A DNA stretch of 5,666 nt from a virus (lineage: Duplodnaviria; Heunggongvirae; Uroviricota; Caudoviricetes), in IMG/VR virus record IMGVR_UViG_2778261420_000014, one strand, 5' to 3'. This document shows positions 1,453 to 5,666 of the stretch, piece after piece. The translations under genes and the position numbers were made by a program. The notes beneath the pieces are model-generated. The model saw only the letters and a list, made by a program, of their open reading frames with translations. It had not been told where the DNA came from and did no database searches. How positions within the stretch are numbered: the first letter of the stretch is position 1; each line of letters opens with the position of its first letter.

Positions 1453-2505
1453 TTATTTCCCCACCAGTTCACTTACCTCTTTCACTGTCTGGTTAAACCG
1501 ATCTGACTCAAGCTCAACACCTAACGCCCGACGCCCCAGCTCCATTGCTGCTTTTATTGTGGAACCAGATCCCATAAAAAAATCAGCAACCAGATCACCT
1601 GGTCGACTACTGGCATTGATTATTTGCCGGAGCATATCCGCCGGTTTCTCACACGGATGTTTACCCGGGTAGAACTGAACGGGTTTATGCGTCCAGACAT
1701 CGGTATAAGGCACGGAGACTGATACGGAGAAATAGCGCCGGAGAGATTTAAACTCATCCAGCAATTCAGAATATTTGCGATTCAGTGAATCATAAGATGC
1801 CACCAGCTGGTGGTGTGGTTGTTCCAGTTGTTGTTTCTGAAACTTCTCTGCCGCTATACGGGAAAAAAGTGCCTGCAACTTCCGGTAGTCAGCCTCATTC
1901 GGCAACTGCCACTGACTGGCACCAAACCAGTGGGAAACCATGTTTTTCTTACCAGTGGCTTCGGCAATCTGTTTTGCCGTTATACCCAGTTCGGCACGTG
2001 CATCCCTGAAATACGATATCAGCGGTGCCATTATGTGCTGTTTGAGTTCCCTTTCTTTTTCCGCATAGCCGTCACTTTTGCCGCGATATGGCCCCTGGTA
2101 ATGTTCAGCAAACAGAACGCGCTCTGTGGCAGGAAAATATGCGCGCAGACTTTCTTTATTACACCCATTCCAACGTCCGGACGGCTTCGCCCAGATGATA
2201 TGGTTAAGCACGTTGAAACGTTCACGCATCATGATCTCAATATCAGATGCCAGGCGATGCCCACAGAACAGGTAAAGGCTTCCGGCAGGTTTCAACACCC
2301 GCCAGAACTGGGCCAGACAGTGGTCCAGCCACTTAAGGTAATCTTCGTCCCCTTTCCACTGATTGTCCCAACCGTTGGGTTTCACCTTGAAGTAAGGCGG
2401 ATCGGTAACAATCAGGTCAATGGAATCATCAGGCAGGGACTGAATAAAATGCAGGCAATCAGCGTTGATTAAATCAACACTGTTTATTTTTACAGTATTT
2501 TTCAT
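1453..2505 (-). CDS. Orphan DNA methyltransferase, beta-class N6-adenine/N4-cytosine amino-methyltransferase (PF01555-like)
   Basis: 350 aa. N-terminal DPPY motif (DLIVTDPPYF, motif IV) and C-terminal FxGxG SAM-binding motif (DFFMGSGST, motif I), with HPCEKP between; the IV-before-I order defines the beta group. No adjacent restriction endonuclease gene in the window. Confidence 0.9.
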   Translation of the reverse strand: MKNTVKINSVDLINADCLHFIQSLPDDSIDLIVTDPPYFKVKPNGWDNQWKGDEDYLKWLDHCLAQFWRVLKPAGSLYLFCGHRLASDIEIMMRERFNVLNHIIWAKPSGRWNGCNKESLRAYFPATERVLFAEHYQGPYRGKSDGYAEKERELKQHIMAPLISYFRDARAELGITAKQIAEATGKKNMVSHWFGASQWQLPNEADYRKLQALFSRIAAEKFQKQQLEQPHHQLVASYDSLNRKYSELLDEFKSLRRYFSVSVSVPYTDVWTHKPVQFYPGKHPCEKPADMLRQIINASSRPGDLVADFFMGSGSTIKAAMELGRRALGVELESDRFNQTVKEVSELVGK

Positions 2506-2654: not shown

Positions 2655-2873
2655 TCATTGCTGAAGGCGTCTGTAACAGCCGAACTGGTAATCTACCAGC
2701 CCCGCCATAACCAGCTGGGTCAGTATTAACTGACAGCGTTCGCGTGAAAGGTATGTGTTTTGTGCAATCTCCCCGACTGTTGCCGGTTCGATGCTTAATT
2801 CATTAAAAACAACTTTCGCCGTTTCTGTCATATCTTGCTGTTTTAGCATGTCTTTTTCCCTTCTGGTTAACAT
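2655..2873 (-). CDS. Small hypothetical protein with a possible helix-turn-helix / winged-helix segment
   Basis: 72-aa ORF; the segment TVGEIAQNTYLSRERCQLILTQLVMAGLV looks like an HTH recognition region. The likelier start is the internal ATG at 2849 (64 aa), which has AAGGGAAAAAG about 8 nt upstream; ATG 2873 lacks a clear SD. Function is inferred only. Confidence 0.5.
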   Translation of the reverse strand: MLTRREKDMLKQQDMTETAKVVFNELSIEPATVGEIAQNTYLSRERCQLILTQLVMAGLVDYQFGCYRRLQQ

Positions 2874-2971: not shown

Positions 2972-2996
2972 AAAAAAACCGCTCGACGGCGGGTTT
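2972..2996 (-). terminator. Candidate intrinsic terminator upstream of the minus-strand gene block
   Basis: Minus-strand RNA would fold as AAAC-CCGC / GCGG-UUU (4 GC pairs plus 3 A-U pairs with one bulged residue, 6-nt loop) followed by a U7 tract (complement of A-run 2972-2978). The short GC stem keeps confidence modest. Confidence 0.35.
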
Positions 2997-3041
2997 AAGC
3001 TGTGTGGCGAAGTAACCACTCTTAACAGATTATGATAGTTT

Positions 3042-3079
3042 TTGCGTACGCGTTAGTAATTTATTATGCTCTTTACAAT
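3042..3079 (+). promoter_or_regulatory. Candidate sigma70-type promoter region for the plus-strand two-gene cassette
   Basis: AT-rich region directly upstream of the cassette. Weak hexamer candidates: TTGCGT (3042-3047), a 17-nt spacer, then TATGCT (3065-3070); alternative -10-like TATTAT (3062-3067) and TACAAT (3074-3079). None is close to consensus; exact placement is uncertain. Confidence 0.2.
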
Positions 3080-3094
3080 TGTTAGCTTAACCGC

Positions 3095-4261
3095 ATGGAA
3101 TTGACCAAAAAAATGAGCAAAGCAAGCATACGCCACGTAATCGTTCATGAGCTCTTAAAAGAATCTAATAAAGACTTCGATCACTCCAAACCATACAATC
3201 TTCGTGATACAGAACTAGATAAAACAAATGATATAGTAAAAAAATTAGTAGACGGTGTTATTGATTTGTATGGTTCAAAAGGGAACTCAGCGCATTATGG
3301 TGTTTTTATTAAAAATAAAACAAAGCAAGGCCCTATACCAGAACTATTTCATAAATACTCTTTAGTTCAACAATCTGTTTCAAGTGATTTCATTGAATTA
3401 TCGAAGGAAGTTATGAAACAAATGTATAAATCTGCTCAAGAGCAGATTTGGGCTTCTGGAGGATATGTTGTTTTTACTGATTATATTTTATCTGGTTTCC
3501 GTTATCTATTGGTTACAATGATCAAAAAAACTAATGGCGTAACTATTAGTGAAAATTTAGAGCCAGAGGAAATGATTCACTTAGAACTTGGTAATATTAA
3601 CCAAGCAGCAAAAATAAATTTCAGATATTATGAAGAATACCAAAAAGCAGATGACTTAAAAAAAACAGACTTAAGTTATCTAAGCTTTATAAGCAAAACT
3701 ACGGGACAGTCAGCGGCAGCATATTTTATAGCAGCATTAGGATGTGACAAGGGGATTGCTTCAGCAGGTGCAACCCGTAAGTTACCAGATGAAATAAGGC
3801 GTTTCTTTAAGAAAGAACCTCTTTTAAAAAATCAAGCAGAGTCATTTAGAAATGATGTTATCAAATACTTAGAAAAGCAATTTGACAACGAGCACTCTGC
3901 AAGGCTTTCTGATATCGAATCGCTTGCTTCAGGCCATATGTCCGATTTAAAAGAGGAAGAAAAAACAGAACTTGTTGATAAATTAATGAAACACCTCAAT
4001 AGTGAGGAAGTCAGAATCCCATCAGAGTTCGTAATCAATAAAAACTCCTTAGATAAAATCCGCAATGTGATATATAAAACCCCATCATTGAGCTTTCACT
4101 TCGACAAGGATTTACTCGGTGTCACAACTGATGCTAAAATATATTATGATGACGAAAACCAAAGCCTAACATTTAATAATTTGCCTGTTGAAGCATTAAC
4201 TAAGATAAGAAGAGCGTTGAAAGAAACTGATAACCCGAGTAATGAAGAAGATAAAGAATGA
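3095..4261 (+). CDS. NdpA/YejK-like nucleoid-associated protein homolog (PF04245-like), divergent
   Basis: 388-aa ORF. Segments parallel remembered E. coli YejK motifs along the whole length: [10 protein letters not shown] vs [44 protein letters not shown] vs [60 protein letters not shown] vs [24 protein letters not shown]; C-terminal [12 protein letters not shown]...LTFNNLP vs LTINFDAMLLG...LTIKGTPP. The true start may be ATG 3113 (MSKASIRHV...), which aligns with the YejK N-terminus. Stop overlaps the next start (ATGA at 4258-4261). Confidence 0.8.
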   Translation: [388 protein letters not shown]

Positions 4262-5484
4262 ATGATTTTAGTATAATAGTTAATCTGTATAGATTATCAA
4301 GCTATCCTCATTTTGACGGGGCTAAGTTTTCTGCGCGTATAGCTTATAATGCAGACGTAAAATCATTGTTCAAAAGAATTTTGAACCCTACTTTTCAAGC
4401 TGGTACAGCTGACGAAATAGAGGTGGATGGTCATTTAATTTATGATTATGAAGACTTTCCTGAAAAGGGAAATTTTCTTACATACTCGTTTAAAATTTCA
4501 CAAGGAAGTGCGAATCGTTTTTATAAAAATAAAAACGAGTTTGTAAAAATAAACACGCTCAAGAAAGGCATAATGCCAGAATATTTCTATATTATAGAGG
4601 ATGATTTCTATTCATTAGAAACACCAAAACCTTCTTATATCCAAAAAATTGAGGACATTTGTGAGCTAATCAATGCTCTTTCCATGCTTGCTCATTTCCA
4701 TGATATAAAAAAAGATAGCAAAGGTACATTTTATCGTTTAGTCTTTATTTTAAACTCAGAGTCTAAATCTTCTTCTGCTGTAATTGAAACAAATATTACA
4801 GAAGAAATTTTTAATGATAAAACAGTAAATACTCAGTTAGTTAAAACATTAGTAAGTAGTGAAGCTACTACTGATGCCCATCACATTGAAAAGATTAACA
4901 CTTTCAGAAACACAGTTATTGAGTATGTTAATAAAAATGGAAATTCCTTTGTCGAGTTAATTAACAAGTGGGATTTCATATGCGAACTTTATACGAACAA
5001 CTTAGCTGCTTATATGTCGGCATTTTCTTTTCATAAAGCAAGGAAAGAAGTTGTTGATGCTGAACTCGATTACTCAGAAAAACTGTCAAAAATAATTTCA
5101 GAAATTTCTAACAAAGCTCTTGCAATACCTATTTCACTAGCTGGTTCAATTGCTATTTTCAAATTAACAACAAAAACTGATTGGATTATTGCTTTAATTG
5201 GATTGATTATCACAGCAATAATAACATCTGCAATGATTGTGTCACAAAAAAAACAACTCGCTCGTATTTCACACTCTAAAGAAATACTTTTTGGACAATT
5301 AAGATATAGAATAAAGGATGACACCAGCGATCTTAAAGAGAGCTTAGAAGAGGCTATTAAAAAATTAAATGACAATGAGGATTTTTGTCATAAGGTGCTT
5401 GACAGTTTATTATCACTAGCATGGATGCCTACATTCATAGGCATCATCGGTATTTTATTTAAATTAATGCCAAATATTACTTGA
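4258..5484 (+). CDS. Hypothetical membrane protein: ~285-aa N-terminal domain of unknown function plus three C-terminal TM helices
   Basis: 408-aa ORF overlapping the upstream gene by ATGA. Predicted TM segments: ALAIPISLAGSIAIFKL (~aa 287-303), WIIALIGLIITAIITSAMIVS (~aa 309-329) and LLSLAWMPTFIGIIGILFKLM (~aa 383-404), with a charged ~50-aa linker between TM2 and TM3. No recognisable catalytic motif in the N-terminal domain. Confidence 0.8.
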   Translation: MNDFSIIVNLYRLSSYPHFDGAKFSARIAYNADVKSLFKRILNPTFQAGTADEIEVDGHLIYDYEDFPEKGNFLTYSFKISQGSANRFYKNKNEFVKINTLKKGIMPEYFYIIEDDFYSLETPKPSYIQKIEDICELINALSMLAHFHDIKKDSKGTFYRLVFILNSESKSSSAVIETNITEEIFNDKTVNTQLVKTLVSSEATTDAHHIEKINTFRNTVIEYVNKNGNSFVELINKWDFICELYTNNLAAYMSAFSFHKARKEVVDAELDYSEKLSKIISEISNKALAIPISLAGSIAIFKLTTKTDWIIALIGLIITAIITSAMIVSQKKQLARISHSKEILFGQLRYRIKDDTSDLKESLEEAIKKLNDNEDFCHKVLDSLLSLAWMPTFIGIIGILFKLMPNIT

Positions 5485-5666
5485 GCATGTACATAACCCC
5501 ATTAATGAAACCTAACGCAGTCTGCAATTGCTTCCGGATTGTTCCATCTGAGCATCTGCGTCTCTTCGCAATAGAACGCAGTGAAATACTGGATTTGCCC
5601 CTATATTTCCAGACACCTGTTATCACTTAACCCATTACTGGCCTGCTGCCGCAGATATTCCCGTGG

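Follow-up and report, generated by a model that had tools for sequence, protein, structure and literature searches.

Two anti-phage systems reported in 2025–2026 encode a protein with a YejK-like nucleoid-associated domain together with a second protein. DS-1 is a two-gene transcription unit of E. coli, composed of WP_000355468.1 (zinc ribbon plus NA37 domain; DS-1A) and WP_000150292.1 (DS-1B), and was reported with DefensePredictor (bioRxiv 2025, Science 2026; PMC13092281). PANGU was reported in a preprint of April 2026 (bioRxiv 10.64898/2026.04.06.716658). In this study, these systems were compared with a gene pair on the + strand of IMG/VR record IMGVR_UViG_2778261420_000014 (Caudoviricetes), a stretch of 5,666 nucleotides that was analysed at its full length and is called the window. 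The first gene, at 3113..4261, encodes a 382-aa NA37/YejK-like nucleoid-associated protein, the presumed sensor (DS-1A/Pag2A-like). The second, at 4258..5484, encodes a 408-aa partner, the presumed membrane effector (DS-1B/Pag2B-like).

DS-1 protected MG1655, and the "YejK nucleoid-associated domain" was listed as newly validated in defence; plating was reduced by 7.6 logs for Bas1, 2.7 for Bas26, 1.7 for Bas3, 1.7 for T3, and 1.0 for T5, and the main text offers no mechanism (PMC13092281). PANGU is defined as a YejK-like nucleoid-associated protein (NAP) gene that is bicistronic (<40 bp apart) with a non-NAP partner. The PANGU NAP binds long chromosomal DNA non-specifically until degradation of the host genome by T4 sets it free; it then binds the effector and activates it, and T4 escapes through denA (EndoII) mutations (10.64898/2026.04.06.716658). 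In Type II PANGU, Pag2A-GFP departs the nucleoid upon infection, and Pag2B consists of an acidic N-terminal domain that binds Pag2A with a KD of 19 nM and a C-terminal transmembrane (TM) domain. Both genes are required and the phenotype is abortive infection, while the mode of activation of Pag2B by Pag2A is still unknown according to the authors. Neither the single genes nor the pair are toxic, and a classical toxin–antitoxin (TA) system was excluded (10.64898/2026.04.06.716658).

The NA37 open reading frame (ORF) of the window probably opens a prophage-borne cassette of two genes that acts against phages by abortive infection and is of the DS-1/Type II PANGU kind, with a probability of about 0.7. 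The NCBIfam model NF053868 (DS1_1_antiphage, nucleoid-associated anti-phage protein) matched the NA37 protein at 99.1 bits (E=2.6e-28, residues 64–360). The model of the second DS-1 protein, NF053869 (DS1_2_antiphage), matched the partner at 100 bits (E=1.5e-28, residues 86–397, profile positions 31–336 of 337). By BLASTP, the NA37 protein showed 24% identity to DS-1A (E=6e-11) and the partner 22% identity to DS-1B (E=8e-11). The hidden Markov models (HMMs) of the window families covered most of DS-1A (67 bits) and of DS-1B (58 bits, HMM positions 88–387 of 405). DS-1 and the window cassette are both two-gene operons of E. coli, with the NA37/YejK-domain protein first and a partner of ~400 aa second. 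DS-1A has an N-terminal zinc ribbon (CxxC...CxxC, with the NA37 domain at aa 42–382), whereas the window protein begins 8 residues before the NA37 core motif and lacks one. The hydrophobic segments of DS-1B are weaker than those of the window partner. Judged by sequence, the cassette is co-homologous with the DS-1 pair, of a distinct subfamily without the zinc ribbon.

The DefensePredictor supplement lists WP_016159279.1 (NZ_NORX01000078.1, 4258–5484, + strand) as a predicted defence gene with a log-odds of 13.05, and also predicts a 382-aa NA37 protein as defence with a log-odds of 10.3 (PMC13092281). The coordinates of the first entry are exactly those of the window partner gene. The window genes appear in the prediction table only, and DS-1 itself is the tested unit (PMC13092281). 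A preliminary description of the NA37 gene had assumed more novelty than the finding has: a YejK-domain pair has been validated and the partner gene is already listed. The cassette is a predicted new member of a defence type described in 2025–2026, not a new kind of defence.

The preliminary description had also viewed the NA37 gene alone, and this view has to be replaced by that of an obligate two-gene unit with a membrane protein. In a scripted HMM census, all 71 loci had an NA37 gene upstream of the partner gene and on its strand. The two genes were directly adjacent in about 65 of these, and the remainder were truncated or interrupted. Sampling with the partner profile covered 23 loci from species-representative genomes and 38 from IMG/VR. 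Sampling from the NA37 side covered contexts from E. coli, Pectobacterium, Edwardsiella, Salmonella, a second E. coli prophage type, and Proteus, and a partner homolog of 405–410 aa was immediately downstream in all seven. The pairing was kept across Enterobacterales, Pseudomonas, Vibrio, and metagenome-assembled genome (MAG) loci, and the pair was also found outside recognisable prophages. In the same loci, the NA37 protein was better conserved than the partner (45–76% versus 33–52% identity). The cassette was present in 30 of 5,426 complete E. coli genomes at 99.6–99.9% identity. One carrier is strain UPEC85, whose name resembles the PANGU-Ecu label "upec" only by coincidence.

Salmonella enterica has a very common variant of the pair, with its NA37 protein found on 895 contigs. 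On a Proteus mirabilis chromosome (L011, 6001–8800), the pair lies beside icd and cold-shock genes, with no recognisable prophage. The Proteus locus still has a block resembling the Q utilisation (qut) site described below and a Q-like ORF (E=4.5e-41) that was not called as a gene. It is probably a prophage remnant that kept the cassette, since these two elements persist.

The family assignment of the NA37 protein was examined by profile and structure comparison. An intact ORF is present at 3095..4261 (+), with 388 aa if read from 3095. Pfam PF04245 (NA37) matched ORF residues 16–364 over profile positions 1–321 of 325 with E=2.3e-50 and 172.3 bits, against a gathering cutoff of 24.6 bits, and the protein was assigned to phrog_3767 (E=2.5e-98). 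By phmmer, residues 5–366 aligned with residues 7–331 of the solved E. coli YejK 9BE2 (E=5e-15). An AlphaFold2 (AF2) monomer model was built from 35 homologs with a pLDDT of 84.4. The only significant match of this model in a Foldseek search of the PDB was 9BE2 (E=4e-16, probability 1.00, 20% identity). The model contains the hairpin arm element of the N-terminal domain (strands 117–126/129–138), and a C-terminal beta-hairpin region (strands 318–322/327–331/343–346/351–354) followed by a helix at 359–372. A two-domain YejK fold is therefore predicted, including the elements that serve dimerisation in YejK. The global TM-score between the model and 9BE2 was 0.45–0.51, and this modest value is probably due to a different domain orientation in the model.

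Chromosomal YejK/NdpA and the window protein share the Pfam family and, end to end, the two-domain fold. They have only 20% identity, and orthology was rejected, as the NF001557 equivalog model gave 134 bits with a cutoff of 341. YejK is a stand-alone core gene, whereas the window gene is low-GC prophage cargo with an obligate partner. Homologs of the window protein were found across many genera at 45–86% identity, and the conserved basic residues include K16, R31, K138, K213, K322, and K332. The preliminary description had proposed a full-length but highly diverged NdpA/YejK homolog, with parallels in both the N- and C-terminal regions, and was borne out on all of these points by the Pfam, NF001557, and structural results.

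That description had further suggested that the annotated ATG at 3095 (+) may be six codons too early, and the homologs agree. The PGAP annotation (NZ_CP161809) gives the 382-aa form with a start at 3113. Of 12 diverse homologs, nine begin exactly 8 codons ahead of the conserved VIVHEL motif, at the position equivalent to 3113 and behind an A-rich leader. A start equivalent to 3095, which is 14 codons ahead of VIVHEL, was found in none of the 11 homologs examined, so 3095 is probably spurious. The GC content was 0.29–0.35 over about 3000–5500 and 0.47–0.51 leftward. The base composition of the cassette is foreign to the host, and its description as an AT-rich mobile cassette was correct, the genes being cargo of a lambdoid prophage.

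The partner start overlaps the NA37 stop by 4 nt (ATGA, 4258–4261), which suggests that the two genes are translationally coupled. The partner was assigned to phrog_5023 (E=7.5e-139), and no match was obtained in the Pfam search. A Kyte-Doolittle scan showed three hydrophobic helices in all six partner orthologs from different genera. In the window protein, these are at aa ~287–305, ~310–328, and ~383–401 (5116..5460, + strand), and a charged linker of ~55 aa separates the hydrophobic hairpin (about 287–328) from the C-terminal hydrophobic helix. The AF2 model of the partner (pLDDT 86) showed an N-terminal alpha/beta domain (about 1–185), then a helical region with a helix of ~50 residues, and helices at all three hydrophobic positions. 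The partner is accordingly modelled as a membrane protein, in which an alpha/beta-plus-helical domain is cytoplasmic and the C-terminal part carries three hydrophobic helices.

An exhaustive HMM search yielded 1,013 partner cluster representatives at E<=1e-3, nearly all full length. Among the 8,000 candidates to which a separate profile search with the partner was limited, the only extra branch was from Stutzerimonas/Pseudomonas. Six polar residues of the cytoplasmic domain (H146, D149, K170, H208, R217, and E222) were invariant in 37 homologs with identities down to ~28%. In the same set, H148 and K151 of the motif AHFHDIK were nearly invariant. To judge from this conservation, the invariant residues could form a catalytic, ligand-binding, or NAP-binding site. 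Residues 1–185 are mildly acidic, with a net charge of -5 and a pI of 5.4; the corresponding charge was -5 to -8 in five of the six orthologs scored and -1 in the sixth.

The window cassette fits the layout of PANGU, with the NAP gene bicistronic with a non-NAP partner through a 4-nt overlap. The predicted partner fits the Type II layout, with an N-terminal cytoplasmic domain and C-terminal hydrophobic helices. Type II PANGU and the window cassette are both pairs of a YejK-like NAP and a partner with a putative or described TM part, matched here by the described architecture and not by sequence. Type II PANGU includes a tested E. coli ("upec") example, PANGU-Ecu, and is widely distributed, in agreement with the 1,013 partner representatives. 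The "DMK" (DNA-mimic) domain of Pag2B is described as strongly acidic, while the corresponding part of the window partner is mildly acidic. The PANGU preprint surveyed the vicinity of defence islands, and its text does not mention prophages.

The lambda RexA/RexB pair is a two-gene abortive-infection system of a lambdoid prophage that is expressed in the lysogen. In RexAB, a multi-pass membrane effector is combined with a cytoplasmic sensor that has ties to phage DNA metabolism. Its likeness to the window cassette is a functional analogy, as no kinship in sequence or fold was found, and RexAB is encoded in the immunity region, whereas the cassette lies in a slot beside the Q gene.

Since the architecture is shared, the Type II PANGU model was adopted for the mechanism. 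In a lysogen, the NA37 dimer would clamp non-specifically on long chromosomal DNA and would thereby be kept apart from the partner. A superinfecting lytic phage that degrades the host chromosome would free the NA37 protein, which could then bind the membrane partner at its cytoplasmic domain. The partner would then compromise the membrane or cell viability. The infected cell would yield no phage, and the lysogen population with its prophage would survive. Lambdoid phages are not known to degrade host DNA, so the induction of the prophage itself need not trigger the system. The preliminary description had offered a mobile copy acting as an invading-DNA sensor or nucleoid-targeting factor. This survives in part: a defence-type sensor tied to the nucleoid agrees with the proposed mechanism, but sensing of invading DNA differs from the PANGU model.

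Several results weigh against this explanation. Both proteins scored far below the DS-1 equivalog cutoffs (99 versus 330 bits for NF053868 and 100 versus 315 bits for NF053869), so function is transferred across about 23% identity. The reported phage spectra of DS-1 and PANGU-Ecu differ, and the trigger may therefore not be uniform. In YejK, DNA is bound by the basic pore residues R173/R176/K177 and R276/R280/K284 (9BE2; PMC11229321). In the phmmer alignment (9BE2 chain numbering is native +3), the first triad is opposite T/Q/S in the window protein and the second is opposite K310/D314/N318, with K315 and R317 adjacent. DNA clamping by the window protein is thus an assumption, because the pore residues are mostly unconserved by this alignment. 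The mild acidity of the partner and its invariant His, Asp, Lys, Arg, and Glu residues could point to a role other than that of a DNA mimic, and no significant solved structural relative was found for the partner. No model of PADLOC-DB 2023 matched either protein; such systems were described after that release. The literature search found no experiment on the cassette or its close orthologs.

Within the lambdoid prophage, the cassette takes up a fixed slot as low-GC cargo, and its strand is opposite to that of the late operon. The late region of the prophage (- strand, ~50% GC) makes up the left half of the window and has genes for an Rz-like protein, a GH104 endolysin, a lambda-family holin, an N6/N4 DNA methyltransferase, and a small winged-helix ORF. 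The phage records of SfV, mEp460, and cdtI match the window only to about 2995–3070, and the low-GC pair was therefore regarded as cargo. On the other side, the 3' part of a PF06530-type Q antiterminator gene (PGAP, NZ_CP161809) lies at 5477..5666 (-) and runs off the window end. The partner gene converges with the Q gene, and their 3' ends share 8 nt (5477–5484). No terminator-like site was found between the two genes, so early transcripts reading through Q would enter the cassette in antisense. In Enterobacterales, a PF06530-type Q gene was convergent with the partner 3' end in all but one locus, with a gap of -2 to 98 nt.

A backbone block is located at 2975..3070 (-) beside the cassette and consists of a non-coding element of ~75 nt conserved over 12 genera, followed by a terminator-like hairpin with a T-run at 2978–2990 (- strand). 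All complete Enterobacterales loci have its 17-nt core, TTTGCGTACGC[GA]TTA, at a distance of 59–88 nt upstream of the NA37 start, and the Pseudomonas, Vibrio, and MAG loci lack it. The block probably represents a pR'/qut/tR' unit that serves the PF06530-type Q. A near-identical block with the core TTTGCGTACGCGTTA borders three different + strand cargos (window 2975–3070, L002 3409–3519, and L009 1130–1240), and backbone homology among the slots stops at about window 3065–3070. In phage cdtI (L002, 3580–4968), the cargo is orf54, a DUF6731 protein of 313 aa, with orf53 (147 aa). In an E. coli metagenome contig (L009, 1292–2806), it is a 292-aa protein that matches the PADLOC candidate PDC-S42 (E=1.7e-53), followed by ORFs of 81 and 128 aa. 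With its position between Q and the presumed cis site of Q, the slot has the look of a hotspot for cargo or defence genes; this would explain why the cassette and this Q allele move together between genera. As far as the literature search showed, this arrangement is absent from published papers. A functional link between the cassette and Q was also considered and was judged to be positional, as loci outside Enterobacterales have the pair but no Q, and other cargos are found in the slot.

A candidate cassette promoter was located at 3042..3070 (+), with a -35-like TTGCGT (3042–3047), a 17-nt spacer, and a -10-like TATGCT (3065–3070). The candidate is weak, with 8 of 12 consensus positions. Over 12 genera, TTGCGT was invariant, and a -10-like hexamer TAnnnT (TAnnCT in most homologs) was found at equal spacing. 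In a consensus promoter scan, promoter-like sites were no more numerous than in shuffled sequence, and this candidate was not among the sites called. Speculatively, the site at the backbone/cargo junction could drive the cargo while overlapping a - strand promoter.

Taken jointly, these features might mean that the cassette is one of several interchangeable defence cargos in a lambdoid hotspot not described before, locked to Q and with lysogen-biased expression, although this combination is doubtful. Recombination that splits Q from qut would disable late-gene activation, so slot cargo would be genetically locked to the Q module and hitchhike with it across genera. The cargo appears to use a backbone promoter that physically overlaps the opposite-strand pR', and it converges with Q. 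Lysogens could therefore express the defence genes strongly, and at the lytic switch of the prophage, promoter occlusion and antisense read-through could turn this expression off. The invariant residues of the partner could mean that the effector is more than a passive pore.

Four other explanations were weighed against the abortive-infection cassette. All four are less likely because the pairing with a membrane protein is invariant, the pair also occurs outside prophages, and both genes are co-homologous to a validated defence pair. The cassette might serve superinfection exclusion, in which the partner blocks DNA entry or an early membrane step, the NA37 protein binds or traps incoming DNA, and the cell survives. 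Many prophage exclusion proteins are membrane proteins, as the partner is predicted to be; the cassette is a prophage moron opposite the late operon, and trapping of incoming DNA would agree with the earlier suggestion of an invading-DNA sensor. This explanation is nevertheless improbable, since the related Type II PANGU causes abortive infection, T4 escape maps to a host-DNA nuclease and not to an entry function, and DS-1 hits unrelated phages with different receptors and injection routes. A regulatory or architectural role for the mobile element, in silencing of the AT-rich prophage DNA or in late-gene timing with an accessory or unrelated partner, has a precedent in NdpA2, an NA37-family protein that is also carried by a mobile element. 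NdpA2 of the integrative and conjugative element (ICE) PAPI-1 of Pseudomonas aeruginosa acts with TprA to relieve MvaT repression, by which ICE transfer is increased >1000-fold; it has no membrane partner and no reported defence role (PMC8565334). In Enterobacterales, the cassette adjoins the Q gene and the putative pR'/qut block, as a timing role would have it. The pair occurs without the Q gene or the qut block in the Pseudomonas, Vibrio, and MAG loci, however, and the sharing of the slot by different cargos makes the Q linkage look positional. Together with the invariant membrane-protein pairing and the homology of both genes to the DS-1 pair, this leaves such a role slightly less probable again than exclusion.

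Still more unlikely is a TA-like addiction module or a lysis/lysogeny accessory, in which a toxin- or holin-like partner is restrained by the NA37 protein. An overlapping two-gene operon with a membrane protein beside the lysis cassette would suit such a module. The related PANGU genes are non-toxic singly or paired, and a classical TA system was excluded by their authors; the cassette lies outside the late/lysis operon on the opposite strand, and the pair is also found outside prophages. The common Pfam family and fold could be expected of a redundant or decaying extra copy of housekeeping YejK without a specific function. This explanation is effectively refuted by the conservation and the invariant pairing: the gene is intact, many residues are invariant across the genera sampled, the NF001557 score is far below the equivalog cutoff, the partner is constant, and the GC content is foreign to the host.

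If the cassette acts like its relatives, common prophages of enterobacteria (E. coli, Salmonella, Shigella, and others) would guard their hosts by detecting that the host chromosome is being lost. Such a guard would not recognise a molecule of the phage, and it would matter for predicting host range in phage therapy. It would also provide a natural prophage-borne subfamily for studying how a freed nucleoid protein activates a membrane effector. The Q/qut cargo slot could be a practical place to mine further defence genes. The cassette extends the current picture of NAP-based immunity and does not change it.

Other features were observed around the slot. In Salmonella enterica (L007/L008, 5321–5884), a DUF6037 gene (+) is located on the late-operon side, just past the conserved block as viewed from the NA37 pair, and may be a second moron at the same junction. 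In the window, the N6/N4 DNA methyltransferase is encoded at 1453–2505 (-) with a Pfam score of 146 bits and a PADLOC MTase_II score of 504 bits. It is directly upstream of the holin gene, and no restriction enzyme was found in the window. The methyltransferase resembles an orphan phage methylase with late expression that presumably serves anti-restriction. The small ORF at 2655–2873 (-) encodes 72 aa with weak winged-helix similarity (TrmB, DprA_WH, and MarR, E~1e-3), was assigned to phrog_331 (E=1.4e-34), and is the first ORF after the tR'-like terminator.

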